64,000 nucleotides of DNA from Bacteroidota bacterium (GTDB lineage Bacteria > Bacteroidota > Bacteroidia > Flavobacteriales > Weeksellaceae): positions 93,192-157,191 of the forward strand of contig JAZBLF010000008.1 in assembly GCA_037033105.1 (NCBI GenBank). The letters are read 5' to 3'. Of the stretch, positions 53,955 to 61,360 are shown in pieces; within the stretch, counting starts at the first letter, position 1; the number at the start of each line of letters is the position of its first letter. A program made the translations under genes and the position numbers. The notes beneath the pieces were generated by a model. The model saw only the letters and a program-made list of their open reading frames with translations. It searched no databases and was not told the origin of the DNA.

Positions 53955-55289
53955 TTATTTCTTCAATTCTTCAAGAAACTCGTCGTGAGAGATCACAGTT
54001 TCTGTTTTCTTAGATTTTTCAAGGATGACATCTTTCAATTTTGCCATAGCCACTTCAGAAGAGATCTGTCTTACCTGGTTTTCGTCTTTCAACATTTCTG
54101 CTGCATATTTCTGAACCTCATCATCACCTAAATGGTGAATTCCGTAGATTGCTAATTGGTTTCTTACCAACTGCTCAGCTTGTCCCAGAACTTCAGCATA
54201 ATCCAACTGGATGTCGTTATCATTCATCAATTTCCCTTCAAGGATTTGACCTTTGATAATGTTTTTCTCGTTTTCAAGAATTTCTTTTGCCTGCGCTTCA
54301 GAAGTGATGTTCTGATTGGAGAACAACAACCATTTGATCAAGAATGCTTCAGGTAATTTGATTTCCTCCTTCTCATTCACCTGAGAAAGGATCTTGTTGA
54401 CGAAATGAACATCTGCATTTTGCTGGAAATATTCGTCCAACTCCATTTTCACTCTAGCTTTCAGTTCTTCTTCAGTCGTGATCACATCTTTACCGTAAAC
54501 TTTGTCAAACAATTCCTGGTTAAGTTCTGCAAGGTTCAATCCGTAGATATCTTTTACCGTCACTTCAACCTCGTTGTGGTGTAGGTGTTCTGCATCTTCT
54601 TTTGAGAATCCTAATTGAGTCGCCAATTCTTCTTTTGACTGAAGATCTTCTTTAGAAACTTTTACAGATTCGTCTTTTTTCAATTTTTTCACCAAATCGT
54701 AAGCTTCTTTCTGATCTTTAGAAATCGTTACGTTTTTTGGAGCGTGATTATGTTCACCTTCTGCACCTTCTTCTACAACTTGGGAGATTTCCAAAGCCAC
54801 GTAAGAATCTTTACCGATTTTCTCTTCCGGCAATCTCTCTGCGAAACGCTTCTGCATGTTCTCAACACTTGTAGAGATTTCTTTTTCAGAAGCTTCTACT
54901 TTGTAATGAGGCGCTTCATATTTAGAAAGATCAACAGTGAATTCCGGTTCGTATCCAACTTCGAAAGCTACAGATAAAGACTCTGCATTGGGATCGAAAT
55001 CGTTTACTGGCTGAGGAACAGGCTGACCTACCAGTCTGAGTTTGTTCTCACTTACATAACCATTCAAGGCTTCTGAAACCTGTTTGTTGATTTCTTCGAA
55101 AGCGATGCCGGCTTCATATTGTTTTTTCACCATACTCAATGGCACTTTTCCTTTTCTGAATCCAGGAACCTGTGCATTTTTAGCATAGTTTAATAGTTGC
55201 TTTTCAACTTTTTCTTTATAATCAGATTTTTCCAATGTTACCGTAAGCAATGCACTTACATCGTCATGGTTTGTAGCTGTAACGTTCAT
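53955..55289 (-). CDS. tig: Trigger factor
   Basis: PGFRKGKVP ribosome-binding motif; TACTTTTG promoter motif at 55310-55317. Confidence 0.93.
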   Translation of the reverse strand: MNVTATNHDDVSALLTVTLEKSDYKEKVEKQLLNYAKNAQVPGFRKGKVPLSMVKKQYEAGIAFEEINKQVSEALNGYVSENKLRLVGQPVPQPVNDFDPNAESLSVAFEVGYEPEFTVDLSKYEAPHYKVEASEKEISTSVENMQKRFAERLPEEKIGKDSYVALEISQVVEEGAEGEHNHAPKNVTISKDQKEAYDLVKKLKKDESVKVSKEDLQSKEELATQLGFSKEDAEHLHHNEVEVTVKDIYGLNLAELNQELFDKVYGKDVITTEEELKARVKMELDEYFQQNADVHFVNKILSQVNEKEEIKLPEAFLIKWLLFSNQNITSEAQAKEILENEKNIIKGQILEGKLMNDNDIQLDYAEVLGQAEQLVRNQLAIYGIHHLGDDEVQKYAAEMLKDENQVRQISSEVAMAKLKDVILEKSKKTETVISHDEFLEELKK

Positions 55290-55374: not shown

Positions 55375-55412
55375 AAAAAAAACCTGCCTTCAATATTTGA
55401 AAACAGGTTTTT
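55375..55412 (-). terminator. Terminator of the receptor-lipoprotein operon
   Basis: AAAAACCTG/CAGGTTTTT stem with an A-run. Confidence 0.7.
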
Positions 55413-55437: not shown

Positions 55438-56004
55438 CTAATTAGTAATTCCAAAGGTAGCTTCAGCGTCTGTCTCGCCACCGGTTACACTTCCCCATGC
55501 CGTTCCGCTCTGTGCTTCGCTTGCAGATGCAGGCTCATGAACCAGCGTTAATTTTAATAATGGCGAAGAAGAATTGACCGCTTTTACAACATCCCACTTT
55601 GTAATAAGTCCTACTTTTCCTAATGCTCCTGTGGAAGAGCTTGTATCGAGTCTTGTCAGGTTAATAGTAGACTTTGGAAAATCAAAAATCAAAAAATGCT
55701 CGTCTTTTGCATCTTTGATTTCCTGTGTCACGTCGTCTGTCCCATTTTTAAAAATAGTGGTGACTTCGTAAGATTTGCCATCTTTCAGCTGGATAACTGG
55801 CGCAGCAGATCCAATAATATAATTATATGACTGAGAAGTTTGCGTTTCGAGATCTTTGACATTGAGCACAATATTGGTCAGCTCTTCCTGTGGCAGATCA
55901 TCTGCTGCAACATCTTCATCTCTCTGGCACGAGATTACGGTTAAAACTAAAATTAAAACTGCTAAAACGTTTACTAGTCTGTTGAAATTGAATTTATTGT
56001 TCAT
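55438..56004 (-). CDS. Lipoprotein, probably surface-exposed partner of the TonB-dependent receptor
   Basis: Lipobox VISC followed by acidic QRDED; EHF and LVHEP motifs; GGETD C-terminus. Confidence 0.8.
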   Translation of the reverse strand: MNNKFNFNRLVNVLAVLILVLTVISCQRDEDVAADDLPQEELTNIVLNVKDLETQTSQSYNYIIGSAAPVIQLKDGKSYEVTTIFKNGTDDVTQEIKDAKDEHFLIFDFPKSTINLTRLDTSSSTGALGKVGLITKWDVVKAVNSSSPLLKLTLVHEPASASEAQSGTAWGSVTGGETDAEATFGITN

Positions 56005-56020
56005 TGTCTGATTTTTTTAA

Positions 56021-56041
56021 TTGTTGATTGTTGATTGTTGA
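56021..56041. repeat. Perfect heptamer repeat (TTGTTGA x3)
   Basis: ttgttga ttgttga ttgttga in the receptor-lipoprotein spacer. Confidence 0.85.
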
Positions 56042-56084
56042 TTTTAAAATAATATCCCTTCCCAAAGGGCGATTTAACCGGGAT

Positions 56085-58472
56085 TTAAAATTTATATCTG
56101 AGATTCAGGATGAAGTTTCTGCCCATATCATAAGCAAAAAGCCGCATTCTGTTCATATAATCTCTGTAATTGGTATTGAATACGTTATTAACTGTAAGTC
56201 CTGCCGACAAGTTTTTCGCAAGATCAATCCCTGCCTGAACGTTCCAAAGCGAATACGTTTTTGGCGGAGTGCTGATGTCGACAACAGTCGTCACTTCCTC
56301 TCCTGCCACATAATCCGTAAATTCCAGATTATGAACGGGATAGCGCTTCTGATCTGCAAAGATCTGGTTCTCCACATTCAGATACAGTCCGTTCCATTCT
56401 TTTTTATTGAACTGGAGCGCATTGGAAAAGTTGACTGGCATCATCAGAATCAGTGGTTCGTCATTAGTTTCGTCCTGCCCATGGACGTATGATCCTCGGC
56501 CTCTGTAGGAGAAATTATCTGTCATATTTAATCTCAAATCTACATCCAGACCATACATCCTGGCATCAATCTGCTGATAGATCCAGACCGGAAAAGTTCC
56601 TGCCTGAGTCAGCTGCAGCGTACCATTCGGAATTTGATTGATGAAATTTTTAGTAACGAAAAAATAAGGGTTTACAGAGATTTCCAGGCCTTGCAACACC
56701 TCCAGCTTTGCATCTGCCAAAAGATTGAACTGGTGGCCTTCTTCATTTTTGATGCTCATATTCCCCTTCTCGATGATTGCTGCAGAATGGTGAAGTCCAT
56801 CTGAGAAAAGCTCTGCAATATTGGGCGTCCTGCCGACTTTTGCATAGTTGAACTTCAGATTAAAATGACTGGACGGATGGTATTCCAAGCCTGCATTGTA
56901 GGAAAGATTATGGTATTTCAGCTTCGGCCTTGTCAGGATTCTGTTGGCATTGGTTCTCACATAAAATTCCGGATAAGCGTCGGCGTAGAGATTTTCCCAG
57001 TCACTTTTGTCATACCATTTGGTTACATCATAGAAATTGTAATCATACCGTATTCCTGCTTCTGCACTCAGTTCAGGCGTTATTTTGTATTTGAAAACAG
57101 AATAAATACCTGCTGAATATTTATCATAATTAGGAATCAAACGTCTGGCCTGCGTTGCGGGGTCAGAATAATTGTTTTGAAAGCTGGCATCAAGACCCGT
57201 TTCCAAGGACCATTTTTCCCTTTCCAAAAGATCATTGATGTTAAACTGATGCGTCATCAAAGCCAAATCCAGAGAAGGAATTTCACTGAGAACGCCTCTT
57301 CTGAGATCAAACTCCTGACGGTGATTGTACTGGAAGCTGTAAGTAGCAGACACTTTACCAATGTTTTCGAACCTGTTGAAGGCAGAAATTTTTGCTAAGT
57401 GATGCTCTATCAGCTGTCTCGGATTGTCTATTTCGTAACTGAAATTTCCGGAATAAAACGGAACAGGCGCATTCATCGCTTCATAATAATCTCGTGGTGT
57501 AGACACGTGAGAATCCCGCAAAATCCCAAGATTCTGATTGGTCAAATAATAATCGAAAGAAAAACCATTCTTGTAGTTATTCTTCTGCACTGTAAAATTA
57601 AATGATGAAAAGTCGGAACCTGTATTTTTCAAATTATACCCTTTCGCGCTCTGATCGCCGAGTTTGCGGATACTTCCTCCCGATTTCACGGACCAGCCGT
57701 TTTCCCAGATCTTTGCGACGTTGACGTCAATTCCCAGACCGCGACCGTTTGAGATTCCGGAAAGATTGACGGAACCTTTCAGAGTATCCTTTTTCGGGAA
57801 AATCTCAGGCTCCAGGACTACAACACCGCCTATGGCGTCGCTTCCGTACCGCAGTGCCGAAGCACCTTTTATCACATCTATGTGCTGAAAATTGTTGACA
57901 TCAATGTTTGGCGCGTGCTCTATTCCCCACTCCTGCTCCTGCATTCTCACACCATTATTGATGATGGAAATCCGGCTTCCGTAGAGTCCGTGAATCACAG
58001 GTTTTACGATATTATTTCCTGTCTTGAGCCCGCTAACACCCGAGATTCCTTTGAGAAGATTGCCCAGGTTTTCCGTGGAATTTCTCTCGATATCAGATTT
58101 TTCGAGCGTTTTCATTATCACAGAACCTCTGGCTTTGTGACTGCCGTGCAGGGTTACCGTTTCTATCTCGCTAATGTGATGTTCCAGAGTGATTGCCAGA
58201 TGCAGGTCCTTATCAATTTTTACATTTTCAGTATAATCATTGCAGTCGGGATGCTTGGCTACGAGTTGGTACGTTCCTGCAGGAATTTTGCTGAATGAAA
58301 ACTTCCCTTTTTTGTCTGTCGTGGCTGTAAATTCACCGATTTTGACCACTGCATTTTCCAGCATTGTCTTATCGTGAAAATCCTGAACAGTACCTTCTGC
58401 CGTGTAAGTTTTCTGTGCGCTTGTCATTGCAAATCCACAAAAGATAAGCAGTAAACTATATATCAATTTCAT
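56085..58472 (-). CDS. TonB-dependent receptor (probable metal uptake)
   Basis: Signal peptide; N-terminal carboxypeptidase-like domain; plug with QEQEWGIEHAP and IDVIKGASALRYG; HHSAA; C-terminal GRNFILNLRYKF. Confidence 0.92.
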   Translation of the reverse strand: MKLIYSLLLIFCGFAMTSAQKTYTAEGTVQDFHDKTMLENAVVKIGEFTATTDKKGKFSFSKIPAGTYQLVAKHPDCNDYTENVKIDKDLHLAITLEHHISEIETVTLHGSHKARGSVIMKTLEKSDIERNSTENLGNLLKGISGVSGLKTGNNIVKPVIHGLYGSRISIINNGVRMQEQEWGIEHAPNIDVNNFQHIDVIKGASALRYGSDAIGGVVVLEPEIFPKKDTLKGSVNLSGISNGRGLGIDVNVAKIWENGWSVKSGGSIRKLGDQSAKGYNLKNTGSDFSSFNFTVQKNNYKNGFSFDYYLTNQNLGILRDSHVSTPRDYYEAMNAPVPFYSGNFSYEIDNPRQLIEHHLAKISAFNRFENIGKVSATYSFQYNHRQEFDLRRGVLSEIPSLDLALMTHQFNINDLLEREKWSLETGLDASFQNNYSDPATQARRLIPNYDKYSAGIYSVFKYKITPELSAEAGIRYDYNFYDVTKWYDKSDWENLYADAYPEFYVRTNANRILTRPKLKYHNLSYNAGLEYHPSSHFNLKFNYAKVGRTPNIAELFSDGLHHSAAIIEKGNMSIKNEEGHQFNLLADAKLEVLQGLEISVNPYFFVTKNFINQIPNGTLQLTQAGTFPVWIYQQIDARMYGLDVDLRLNMTDNFSYRGRGSYVHGQDETNDEPLILMMPVNFSNALQFNKKEWNGLYLNVENQIFADQKRYPVHNLEFTDYVAGEEVTTVVDISTPPKTYSLWNVQAGIDLAKNLSAGLTVNNVFNTNYRDYMNRMRLFAYDMGRNFILNLRYKF

Positions 58473-58713
58473 TATAAATAGATCGATTTTATACTTTTAA
58501 GACCTTGATATTCAATCAATAAAAAAATTGATGAATTAAGTCTCAGAAGTACGTTTTTGTTAAAATAGCTGGATTTTACAATGTAGAATTACATCGCTGG
58601 ATTTTTGAACATTTAAAATGATTAAGCAGCATCAGGAAGGAATCATGCGTCCATCAGGAGCTAGTTAAATTCTAAAAATTCAAAAGCACAAAAATCCGAA
58701 AAGAATCTAAAAA

Positions 58714-59073
58714 TTATGAAATGGCGGGCGGGCCGCGAAGTTGGAAGGTAAATCTGGTAGAAGACCATATTTTTTCCTGTACAGAAAAAGCTTGTTGTGT
58801 CTCGTGTGTGTGGTTTTCAAAATGGAAAGAAAACTGCTCCGGAACCAATGAATTGCCGGTTGCCAGGAAATGACAGGCAAGACAATCGCCGGAATTGGAC
58901 TGTGAAATGTCTGACGAAATCGTTTTTTCCGCCTTTTTGAAACCAGAATCTTTGAAAAAAGTTTCGCCTGCGTGGCTGTGCAACTGCGAGGAAAACAAGG
59001 CTACAAAAAGATACATCACGGCAAAAAATACCGAAATGAAATTTTTGAAAGATTTGCTTTTTCCAATCAACAT
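58714..59073 (-). CDS. DUF2946-like upstream ORF (CruR-like)
   Basis: TM helix, HSH, CLACH (CxxC), His-rich HFENHTHE, C-terminal QLRGPPAIS. Confidence 0.75.
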   Translation of the reverse strand: MLIGKSKSFKNFISVFFAVMYLFVALFSSQLHSHAGETFFKDSGFKKAEKTISSDISQSNSGDCLACHFLATGNSLVPEQFSFHFENHTHETQQAFSVQEKIWSSTRFTFQLRGPPAIS

Positions 59074-59078
59074 AGCTG

Positions 59079-59086
59079 CAAAGGTA
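59079..59086 (-). promoter_or_regulatory. -7 promoter element 5 nt upstream of the uORF ATG
   Basis: TACCTTTG-CAGCT-ATG. Confidence 0.6.
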
Positions 59087-59134
59087 GAATATTTTTATTA
59101 CTGGAGATTAATATTATGTTAAATCAAAACCAGA

Positions 59135-60163
59135 TTATTTCTCTTCTTCAAAGTACAGACGGTAATATTTCCCTTTGTCGTCCTGTCCGGTTTCCAATTT
59201 GTCGCGGTCTCCGTGGATGTAGATGTGGAAATTTTTATCCAGTTTAATAATTGATTTGAAATGACGCTGCTGCTTTTTAACAGCCTGCGTATTGATCGGA
59301 AAATCTTCTGAGATTGAGATCTGCATATCATTCTCATAATCAGATTTGAAGTTGGAGAAACTTTCTATGACACTGTCATCAATCAAAACTTCTTTCACAA
59401 AATCATCATATTTGAACTCTTCTTTTTCTTTGAAGAAATTGATCGATTTATTAAGGAAATCTGCCTGATCTGCTTTGGAAACCTCGAATTCCTGAGGCAA
59501 TTGCTGCGTGATAAAATCTTTGTAAACGGACAAAGTTTCCTGCGTATGAAAATACTCGTTGTCGCGCTGTTTTACTTTCAGAAAATCCTCAAACCAATAA
59601 TAGATGTCGCCATTTTTGTTGTTATCAATCACGGACAAAACGTAGCCGCTTTCCTTGTCACTGTTATAGATGAGAGCCGCTTTATCAATCTTTGACAGGC
59701 TGATTCCGAAGTCTCTTTCGATATCAAATGTTTCGTCGCGAGGATTTATTTTAAGGAAACCTTCTCGCTTTTCAGTTTTGAAAATCCCAATAGAATCGAT
59801 TTTTTTGTTGTCGCCGTCAGTAGATTCGATGGTGTCGCCTTCGAAATAAACGATGAACAATTCGCCACCCTGAACTCTCGGATTTTCTGCTGCGTCGTAA
59901 AGGTGTTTGGCGATGTTCTCCGATTCCCACTGGAACTTGGCATTGTCTTCAAAAATCTCTGACACAGAACTGTAAATGGGATTGTTTACCAAGTAAGAAT
60001 CGCTGTAAAACTGGAACTGCTCTTCAGATTTGAAGGCATTCATAAAGTAATTTCCGAGCAATTCCTTCATATCCTCTTCCAGCTGTAACTCCTGCTGAGA
60101 GAGCATTAACGATTCCTGATTGATTTTATTCCCGACTCTGTGAACTGTGATTTTTGAAAACAT
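59135..60163 (-). CDS. Nucleoid-associated protein (NdpA/YejK-like)
   Basis: HRVGNK, S..IAKHLY....PRVQGGELF, GIFK.E, IDKAALI, YW...FL. Confidence 0.82.
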   Translation of the reverse strand: MFSKITVHRVGNKINQESLMLSQQELQLEEDMKELLGNYFMNAFKSEEQFQFYSDSYLVNNPIYSSVSEIFEDNAKFQWESENIAKHLYDAAENPRVQGGELFIVYFEGDTIESTDGDNKKIDSIGIFKTEKREGFLKINPRDETFDIERDFGISLSKIDKAALIYNSDKESGYVLSVIDNNKNGDIYYWFEDFLKVKQRDNEYFHTQETLSVYKDFITQQLPQEFEVSKADQADFLNKSINFFKEKEEFKYDDFVKEVLIDDSVIESFSNFKSDYENDMQISISEDFPINTQAVKKQQRHFKSIIKLDKNFHIYIHGDRDKLETGQDDKGKYYRLYFEEEK

Positions 60164-60247: not shown

Positions 60248-61360
60248 TTAGTCCCGTTCAAACTTTTCAATCTTCAATGCAGGCTTCAGTTTTTTGATAT
60301 AAAAAGCAGCCATTGCGCGTGCAAATGTCGGCCGCAATTCACCGTCATTTGAGAGAACTACAAAGGTATAACCTTCGTTTGGAAACCTAAGAATATCTGC
60401 TAAACCGGGACCGCCGCTGTGCCCGGCGTACAAAACATCATCTTCTGTTCCGGTAACCCAGCCAACTTTGGAAAAACCGGCATCTTTACCATCAATTTTG
60501 TCTGCTTTGTAAATGAAATTTTGGGAAAAAGAATTGGGAAACAGCACTTCATTATCCAGCCCCAGAGCCCAGTTTGCCATATCATCGATTGATGCAAAAT
60601 AGCCGCCAGCCGGATATGTGTATTGTGGATAAAGAAATTTGTAGGCTTTCATTTTGCCATCTAGATCATAATAAGTGGTGACTTTTTCCGGAATAATATC
60701 TGTGCGGAGAAACTGCCCGTTGACCTTAAATTCCATATCAAACGCACCATCATTCATCTGGAGTGGAATGGCAACTTCGTCTTTTAAAATCTGAACGAAG
60801 GGTTTGTTGTAAATCTTTTCAAAAATGTAAGATAACACCATAAAATCTGACTGTGCGTATTGCTGTTTTGATCCCGTTTTGAAAACCAAAGGTAGTTTTT
60901 TGACAGCCTCCACAATCTTCTCGGTTGGCAAATAAACATCACTTTCATAATAGTCGGCAATCCCGCTCGAGTGGCTGATGAGGTTTTCGATTTTGATCGC
61001 ATTCCATTCCTCCGGACAATCCGGAATATATTTTGAAACCGGATCTTCCAGACTGATCTTTCCGCTGTACATCGTCTTTAAAAGAAGCGTTGACGTCAGC
61101 AGTTTGGTGCAGGATGCAATCTGGAAATTGGTGTGATTGGTGACTTTGCTGTTCCAGTCCAGATTTGCGAAGCCATAAGTTGTCTTCTTGATAATTTTTC
61201 CGTTTTTGATGACTGCGACTGCCATTCCAGGGATTTTCAGGGATTTCATGTGCTGTTTCACAAACTGGTCAATTTCTTTCCCGATCTTCTTTTCGTTTTG
61301 CTGTCCGAAAAATAAAAATGAACAGAGAAATGAGAAGAGAAAACACAGATTTTTTTTCAT
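60248..61360 (-). CDS. Beta-lactamase-family serine hydrolase
   Basis: Signal peptide; ASCTK (SxxK), LISHSSG, YAQ, GHSGG. Confidence 0.88.
   Translation of the reverse strand: MKKNLCFLFSFLCSFLFFGQQNEKKIGKEIDQFVKQHMKSLKIPGMAVAVIKNGKIIKKTTYGFANLDWNSKVTNHTNFQIASCTKLLTSTLLLKTMYSGKISLEDPVSKYIPDCPEEWNAIKIENLISHSSGIADYYESDVYLPTEKIVEAVKKLPLVFKTGSKQQYAQSDFMVLSYIFEKIYNKPFVQILKDEVAIPLQMNDGAFDMEFKVNGQFLRTDIIPEKVTTYYDLDGKMKAYKFLYPQYTYPAGGYFASIDDMANWALGLDNEVLFPNSFSQNFIYKADKIDGKDAGFSKVGWVTGTEDDVLYAGHSGGPGLADILRFPNEGYTFVVLSNDGELRPTFARAMAAFYIKKLKPALKIEKFERD

Follow-up and report, generated by a model that had tools for sequence, protein, structure and literature searches.

We analyzed a 64,000-nucleotide (nt) stretch of DNA from a Bacteroidota bacterium of the Weeksellaceae (GenBank assembly GCA_037033105.1, contig JAZBLF010000008.1, positions 93,192 to 157,191; hereafter, the window), concentrating on a short open reading frame (ORF) located ahead of the genes for a TonB-dependent receptor and a lipoprotein. 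A preliminary description of this locus had taken the ORF for a CruR-like arrest-peptide leader, and every feature it listed was recovered in place. All of these features lie on the minus strand, and coordinates refer to window positions. More specifically, the candidate arrest-peptide leader, an ORF of 119 amino acids (aa) at 58714..59073, is followed by a 241-nt spacer (58713..58473), by the receptor gene (795 aa, 56085..58472, encoding N-terminal CarboxypepD_reg, Plug, and barrel domains) and, after a gap of 80 nt, by the gene for a surface-type lipoprotein (188 aa, 55438..56004). The terminator reported earlier, an intrinsic one consisting of a hairpin with a T-run at 55412..55378, ends the operon.

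The promoter motif TAnnTTTG, previously noted 5 nt before the ATG, corresponds to the Bacteroidota -7 element TACCTTTG (59086..59079), which is followed by CAGCT and then by the ATG at 59073. TAnnTTTG occurs 4-5 nt upstream of the ATG in nearly all of 80 related loci and likewise in Flavobacterium. According to the published geometry in F. johnsoniae, the G of the element occupies position -5 and transcription starts 4-5 nt further on, and 87% of the transcripts of that species have leaders of >10 nt (PMC6847099). Given this geometry, a motif located 4-5 nt from the ATG indicates that the leader-ORF mRNA would be leaderless or would have a leader of 0-1 nt, a layout that, as predicted from sequence, is unusual for the phylum. 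Further upstream, inside the 61-nt gap that follows the gene for NA37 (a 37-kDa nucleoid-associated protein), we observed an element, GATTTAACATAAT (59125..59113; -52..-40 from the ORF ATG), which is conserved in Epilithonimonas-type loci and in place of which Chryseobacterium carries AAAACTTTAAT; it may bind a regulator or serve as an upstream element of the promoter.

We also searched the spacers for TAnnTTTG. The motif is absent from the window spacer and turned up in just 10 of 78 spacers, its position differing between them, so that there is no conserved internal promoter motif and the receptor most likely depends on the promoter of the leader ORF.

Conservation of the leader ORF and its likeness to CruR

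The 119-residue product (MLIGKSKSFKNFISVFFAVMYLFVALFSSQLHSHAGE...GDCLACHF...HFENHTHE...FQLRGPPAIS) carries all the parts first ascribed to it, namely a membrane helix, HSH, CLACH, a His-rich patch (HFENHTHE), and RGPP three residues from the stop. The hydrophobic residues 12-29 (58987..59040), preceded by K5, K7, and K10, are predicted to form an N-terminal signal peptide or an N-in transmembrane segment, at the outer end of which lies H32-S-H34 (58972..58980). C64-L-A-C67-H68 (58870..58884) is a candidate metal-binding motif and, 45 residues after this CxxC, R113-G-P-P116 (58726..58737) forms the putative arrest core, leaving only AIS and the stop. In an AlphaFold2 model, helix 4-32 is the only confident part (mean predicted local distance difference test [pLDDT] score, 57.5), and the product is predicted to be largely disordered outside this membrane helix.

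Close homologues of the leader ORF number 41 and occur in Epilithonimonas, Chryseobacterium, and other Weeksellaceae. When 1.8 billion representatives were searched with a profile, 113 clusters at 50% identity were obtained, nearly all of 100-135 aa, and a genome scan located the ORF in at least 205 loci; an alignment built from distant members alone was too divergent for such a scan. Named carriers include Flavobacterium (among them F. johnsoniae), Riemerella columbina, and a Bacteroides metagenome-assembled genome (MAG). Across 112 diverse members, mean column identity is 25%, H32, C64, R113, P115, and P116 are invariant, and Y21, H34, C67, and G114 are conserved in at least 90%. By such sequence comparison, the leader ORF is a real conserved gene, more than chance would produce.

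Several of these motifs vary in an informative manner. HxH was found in 100 of 104 representatives and a His directly after CxxC in 89 of the 104, the Flavobacterium members having CxxCN. We rejected identity as a c-type cytochrome, because CxxCH is not invariant and no folded domain is present. At the C terminus, 145 sequences divide into 135 with RGPP and 10 with RAPP; Leu precedes the motif in 130 sequences, and 1-6 residues follow it. CxxC and RxPP stand 45 residues apart in 130 of 143 sequences (range, 43-46) and in 91 of 104 nonredundant representatives, whereas the distance from HxH to CxxC varies from 5 to 64. As the 45-residue stretch is kept in length and not in sequence, it behaves as a ruler would. 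The codons of L-R-G-P-P differ synonymously between loci (for Arg, CGC, CGG, CGT, CGA, or AGG) while the residues are fixed, indicative of a constraint on the peptide rather than on the RNA.

Gene order is likewise conserved. The receptor gene follows the leader ORF in 79 of 80 loci, with the lipoprotein gene next in most, and in 77 of the 80 the leader ORF is first in the receptor operon and is separated by a long spacer (130-600 nt in the main set of loci). Receptors of three classes (~80%, 56%, and 26% identical to that of the window) all stand behind very similar leader ORFs. Distant members (25-36% identity) retain the order of leader ORF, receptor (~793 aa), lipoprotein (~185 aa), and tig, with spacers of only 72-78 nt. 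The Flavobacterium loci (L161-L240) comprise a leaderless 117-aa ORF (..LRGPPxxIVS) and a 735-aa receptor without a lipoprotein, an unrelated peptidase gene being next. In the Bacteroides sp. MAG (L241, 5001-8048), a RAPP-type ORF precedes a 712-aa receptor and a DUF4625 lipoprotein, to which we found no relation of the window lipoprotein.

DUF2946/CruR proteins are defined by CxxC and RAPP, the spacing of which varies by no more than 1-2 residues, by an export signal in >95%, and by their position first in operons, often with a TonB-dependent transporter, ahead of a long spacer (Roy et al., PMC9426467). In Bordetella pertussis CruR (Bp2923), located upstream of bfrG, CxxC and RAPP are spaced by 45 residues, the spacer is 162 bp, coupling is by Rho-dependent termination, and the signal peptide is dispensable (PMC9426467). 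The window ORF has all the CruR-defining features: CxxC, RGPP for RAPP, the spacing of 45, a predicted export segment, and first place in a receptor operon. The two are alike as small ORFs in first position whose products have a segment for export at the N terminus, a CxxC, 45 intervening residues, and R-x-P-P three residues before the stop. In each case a long spacer and a TonB-dependent transporter gene follow, and both products are predicted to be poorly structured. The window leader differs from CruR in having RGPP instead of RAPP, in adding HxH and a His after CxxC, and in its mRNA, which would be leaderless and transcribed from a Bacteroidota promoter. The downstream genes differ as well, with a copper-type receptor and a PepSY_TM protein in the case of CruR versus a receptor with ZnuD/heme-type ligand residues and a β-sandwich lipoprotein here.

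The arrest core itself is well precedented. No arrest cores are more robust than RAPP and RGPP, which resist EF-P and of which RGPP is as strong as RAPP; both are avoided in proteomes and occur near the C termini of small exported proteins upstream of regulated genes, including those for TonB receptors (Fujiwara 2025, PMC12992588). CruR arrests in vitro with its Pro-Pro codon pair in the P and A sites, as located by toeprinting, and the same survey found upstream ORFs (uORFs) of TonB receptors throughout Gram-negative bacteria (Fujiwara et al., PMC12992588). The window leader also resembles arrest peptides of the ApdA/ApdP/ApcA type in that RGPP lies near the C terminus of a small protein, membrane or secretory, whose gene precedes the regulated one. 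For Bacteroidota, the survey contains no family description, ruler, RNA switch, or experiment, its tested cases being Streptomyces, Bacillus, and E. coli systems and CruR.

The distribution of RAPP/RGPP also bears on a different account of the 119-aa product, under which it would be a mature metal-binding protein anchored in the membrane and serving as a chaperone or as a receptor partner; RGPP would then be structural, and a conventional repressor would act at the promoter. HxH and CxxCH would be good ligands for a stable site, the element at -52..-40 is conserved, and relatives are named "cytochrome c domain" or "DUF2946" proteins in some sources. However, we consider this account improbable: the membrane helix alone is confidently modeled, the 45-residue segment is conserved in length and not in sequence, RAPP/RGPP motifs are excluded from proteomes and enriched at the C termini of small exported proteins upstream of regulated genes, and the leader ORF always comes first, ahead of a long spacer.

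Whether the leader belongs to DUF2946 is a separate matter. In a search with the DUF2946 hidden Markov model, which the preliminary description had proposed, the leader gave a hit (16.8 bits; E, 0.012) that is colinear over residues 25-116 versus 14-117 of the 117-position model and falls below the Pfam threshold of 23.7. PF11162 was hit at E ≤ 0.1 by 13 of 112 members (best E, 2.2e-4), being the sole family hit repeatedly and always weakly; the family consensus had no Pfam hit, UniRef names a few orthologues DUF2946, and no Bacteroidota names appear in Table S1 of Roy. For comparison, 78 of 80 Pseudomonas oprC loci (L081-L160) carry a true DUF2946 ORF (68-80 bits) directly upstream of oprC and ~300-900 nt ahead of the match. 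In these ORFs, CGYC is separated by 46 residues from RAPP, three more residues complete the product, and the membrane helix is followed by a Met/His-rich stretch. Homology to these proteins was not supported: hhalign against the 78 Pseudomonas sequences gave a probability of 0.9% and aligned only the CxxC region. Judged by sequence, then, the leader is CruR-like and not a proven DUF2946 member; the two families share the same design and may be very distant relatives or convergent.

Predicted pairing between the leader end and the receptor start

The window spacer is structured (fold z-score, -3.97). Neither the window region nor any of eight related loci matched an Rfam family, and a hairpin scan just 3' of the leader stop gave weak, inconsistent hairpins (median, -4.9 kcal/mol). 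In the minimum free energy fold of the window RNA, two long-range helices that enclose the spacer (58473..58713) connect the end of the leader ORF to the start of the receptor gene. Helix 1 joins C58724 and A58722..U58716 to G58464 and A58472..U58466 (AUG AAA U), its 5' arm (C..AUUUCAU, 58716..58724) comprising codons 117-119 and the first stop base and its 3' arm (AUGAAAU.G, 58464..58472) the AUG of the receptor gene and the two codons after it. Helix 2 joins U58709..U58704 (UAGAUU, 58704..58709) to G58484..A58479 (GAUCUA, 58479..58484), the latter at -12..-7 of the receptor AUG. The 5' arm of helix 1 lies at +7..+15 from the P-site codon, inside a ribosome stalled with Pro115 in the P site.

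To assess this complementarity beyond the window, we applied ensemble folding to RNAs comprising the ORF end, the spacer, and the receptor start, with controls in which the ORF-end segment was shuffled. At least 6 expected pairs between the two segments were obtained for 49 of 72 nonredundant loci (median, 12.7; window, 13.7) versus 9 of 144 shuffled controls. Consistently, duplex energy had a median of -9.5 kcal/mol, compared with -4.9 kcal/mol for the shuffles (median z, -2.65), and in 37 of 71 loci the leader-ORF end was the best partner of the receptor start among ~100 segments. For the window, the duplex has a z of -2.65 (P = 0.017). In the main class, 80% of helix 1 cells are paired, compared with 23-45% in slid registers.

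The pairing recurs in at least seven sequence-distinct versions across lineages. The majority version consists of CAAUUUCAU/AUGAAAUUG plus AUAGAU/AUCUAU, the latter of which recurs in Chryseobacterium and Epilithonimonas loci; L008 and L017 have AUUUCAUAAUU/AAUUAUGAAAU, and L018 and L021, in which the ORF ends in AFC and the receptor is just 26% identical to that of the window, have CAUUUUG/CAAAAUG. In Flavobacterium, the ORF end did not pair directly with the AUG segment, and a wider segment gave a helix, GCUAUAGUU/AACUAUAGC, at -21..-12 (median, -11.0 kcal/mol; median z, -3.17); 87% of 76 loci fall below a z of -1.64, and one (L178) has a G-C to A-U double change. Three more versions (z, -2.4 to -5.0) were obtained for loci from distant lineages (L242, L244, and L247).

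When the footprint of the stalled ribosome (58743..58716) was forced to be unpaired in silico, the probability of being unpaired for the three bases of the receptor AUG rose from 0.09/0.01/0.01 to 0.72/0.73/0.55. In this model, as in systems of the SecM/CutF type, a stem occludes the downstream start while its other arm lies under the stalled ribosome. In SecM-secA, MifM-yidC2, and VemP-secDF2, a ribosome arrested near the leader end disrupts a stem sequestering the downstream start. SecM, MifM, and VemP monitor the export machinery itself, whereas the ligand motifs of the present leader point to a metal. CutF, a DUF2946 protein encoded upstream of cutO in Rhodobacter capsulatus, shares with our proposal a nascent exported peptide, a Cys motif, a C-terminal proline-rich stall site, and a stall that melts a stem shielding the downstream start, in that case a ribosome-binding site; unlike in CutF, the helix here is long-range, enclosing 70-600 nt.

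An alternative mode of coupling keeps the same arrest peptide and makes the helix incidental or secondary: as in CruR, the stall would block Rho loading or access in the spacer, and release would lead to termination before the receptor gene. This alternative has the CruR precedent with its 162-bp spacer, spacers here are long (130-600 nt), the window spacer yielded no intrinsic terminator, and a leaderless start would be expected to couple the first ribosome tightly to RNA polymerase. Nevertheless, we regard it as unlikely. The spacers have no C-over-G bias of the kind that marks Rho sites (window, C 0.15 and G 0.13; means, 0.145 and 0.141), those of distant members are just 72-78 nt long, and Rho coupling does not predict recurrent, sequence-distinct pairing between the leader end and the receptor start. 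Masking of the receptor start, rather than Rho termination, is thus the coupling that we propose.

Separate structures were observed in the spacers of close relatives. These carry a post-stop hairpin, UUUUCUCAAU..AUUGAGAA, which the window has lost, and the closest relatives (L004, L008, L022, L023, L043, L049, and L052) have in common this hairpin and a GC-rich spacer element, GGGCAGCT..TCCGCGCTCCACTCCCGC .. GAGCTCCGTTCAGCTCGGGCTGC; the window is without both.

Ligand, proposed switch, and neighboring genes

The His motifs first noted in the receptor, EHAP and HHSAA, correspond to E185-H186 and H561-H562 of its 795 aa. Its top NCBIfam matches were the heme/hemoglobin receptor models TIGR01786 (1.6e-38) and TIGR01785 (3.6e-37), with scores far under their cut-offs (132 versus 324 bits and 128 versus 317 bits, respectively); the ZnuD model NF038289 scored 66.9 bits against a cut-off of 950 and the OprC/NosA copper model TIGR01778 77.7 bits against 472. 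Among solved structures, ZnuD is the best relative, and the plug-apex E185-H186 and loop H561 align with its D99-H100 and H499, that is, with three of the four residues of the high-affinity zinc site (D99/H100/E340/H499; PMC4557270). E185, H186, and H561 are invariant in all 77 leader-linked receptors, including the 26% class. In ZnuD of Neisseria and OprC of Pseudomonas, as in the window receptor, the plug-apex loop carries ligand residues, the window receptor having an extra N-terminal CarboxypepD_reg domain relative to both. An OprC-type copper receptor was rejected, as the aligned plug loop, QEQEWGIEHAPN, has no Cys/Met ligands and the score is below the cut-off.

The acidic export-like signal described for the lipoprotein was found as VISC26-QRDEDVAADD, with the lipobox Cys (C26) invariant; an acidic stretch after this Cys is the surface lipoprotein export signal of Bacteroidota. 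The protein is a confidently modeled all-β sandwich (pLDDT, 88) with invariant E102, H103, H156, E177, and D179, for which no Pfam or NCBIfam family matched and no PDB fold did so at E < 0.01, the hits being generic Ig-like sandwiches only; a HmuY or other hemophore signature was not found. Between the receptor stop and the lipoprotein start lies a short GC hairpin, CCCTTTGGGAAGGG, with a T-rich tail (56056-56069, minus strand), which could act as an attenuator of lipoprotein expression.

With low confidence, we favor a Zn-like divalent cation over Cu as the metal sensed and imported, because the receptor has residues that align with ZnuD ligands and lacks the Cys/Met of OprC, a paralogous lipoprotein is His-rich, the leader has His and Cys ligands without the Met-rich stretch of the copper-linked DUF2946 of Pseudomonas, DUF2946 genes adjoin zinc/cadmium efflux genes in Caulobacter, and copper-related uORF classes are missing from Bacteroidota (Fujiwara et al., PMC12992588). 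Copper, other metals, and heme are possible ligands too, and our literature search found nothing specific on a characterized Bacteroidota receptor of this kind, whether for zinc or for copper. That heme rather than a free metal ion is sensed and imported seems very improbable. CxxCH is the heme-c motif, with the His present in 89 of 104 representatives, the heme receptor models are the top NCBIfam hits, and two facing His residues (plug apex and loop) are common to ZnuD and heme receptors such as HasR. However, the scores of those models are far below their cut-offs, Flavobacterium members have CxxCN, the plug His has an acidic residue before it, like H100 of the D99-H100 pair of ZnuD, the paralogous lipoprotein resembles zinc-binding loops in its richness in His, and the window lipoprotein has no hemophore signature.

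Taken together, the conserved gap of 45, RGPP near the stop, the export segment, synteny, and the lack of a conserved internal promoter support the CruR-like reading first put forward, and we consider it probable that the 119-codon ORF is the regulatory arrest-peptide leader of the receptor-lipoprotein operon and serves as a metal-sensing translational switch. As to the stall itself, its release by metal, and the direction of regulation, we infer the following sequence. Transcription would start at, or 1 nt before, the leader AUG, giving a leaderless mRNA, and the N-terminal helix would anchor the nascent chain. The ribosome would stall at R113-G-P-P116 when Pro115 occupies the P site and Pro116 the A site. 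At this point, because of the distance set by the 45-residue ruler, CxxCH would lie ~48-51 residues from the peptidyl-transferase center, just out of the exit tunnel and at the translocon. The stalled ribosome would cover codons 117-119 and the stop, otherwise paired with the receptor start (AUUUCAU/AUGAAAU; UAGAUU/GAUCUA), so that during the stall the receptor start would be free and receptor and lipoprotein would be made. Plentiful metal would bind the nascent HxH/CxxCH and release the arrest, whereupon the ribosome would terminate, the long-range helix would re-form, and the receptor start would be masked. This direction is opposite to that of CutF, in which copper induces the stall, the detoxifying oxidase is turned on, and EF-P is involved; as the downstream gene here encodes an importer, metal should instead release the stall.

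A more detailed version can be offered only tentatively and seems to us somewhat doubtful: the ruler would place CxxCH at the outer mouth of the translocon, where periplasmic zinc or another divalent metal bridging HxH and CxxCH would pull the chain and free the arrest, the mRNA helix gating the receptor independently of any transcription factor, in parallel to, or very distantly related to, CruR/CutF.

Several points weigh against the proposed switch. Formal covariation for helix 1 of the main class is not significant, with one double change and a score that is attained in 112 of 500 shuffles, because the two arms hardly vary in that class; both are coding and conserved. Helix 1 is AU-rich, has 7-9 bp, and closes a 240-nt loop, which makes it thermodynamically marginal. 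About a third of loci (e.g., L019, L020, L023, and L024) have no such helix, nor does the Bacteroides MAG (L241), in which the last codons and the stop lie in one local hairpin and the receptor AUG in a separate one. The metal assignment rests on three aligned ligand positions that heme receptors share. With Rho-dependent coupling and a dispensable signal peptide in CruR, both the sensing compartment and the coupling step may differ from those proposed, and no experimental work on a stall or a metal response in Bacteroidota members was found in the literature.

The system is not categorically new, as its class was flagged in the 2025 survey and its mechanism has precedents; what is new here is the RNA pairing under the stall footprint. 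We regard it as a Bacteroidota variant of the CruR/CutF-type leader, with RGPP, a predicted leaderless mRNA, an added HxH, and a different receptor type, and probably with the masking helix. Nascent-peptide posttranscriptional metal sensing has been demonstrated experimentally for two proteobacterial DUF2946 proteins only, apparently with different coupling steps, and the present family would extend the principle to Bacteroidota and points to a metal other than copper. As Bacteroidota lack Shine-Dalgarno-based initiation, structure at the start site should be an especially effective control point. The putative RNA switch is simple and can be tested, the 45-residue ruler is exact and open to insertion and deletion, and the family would assign a function to a conserved "hypothetical protein" of most Chryseobacterium and Epilithonimonas and many Flavobacterium genomes. 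F. johnsoniae, which is genetically tractable and for which ribosome profiling (Ribo-seq) data exist (Baez et al. 2019), is among the carriers, its orthologue being of the WP_289879340 type (..LRGPPxxIVS).

Beyond the operon, the upstream neighbors on the minus strand encode NA37 and a β-lactamase-fold protein (59135-60163 and 60248-61360, respectively), and the trigger factor gene (tig) lies downstream (53955-55289). A related locus (L001, 5001-8567) and the window (55438-59073) occupy one slot, with NA37 upstream and tig downstream, filled by two very different receptor-lipoprotein cassettes: identity is 87% for the leader ORF, 58% for the receptor, and 29% for the lipoprotein, and the L001 lipoprotein is His-rich (VHEHDE, DGHLHLHAGD, KHDDHYH..DHHF).

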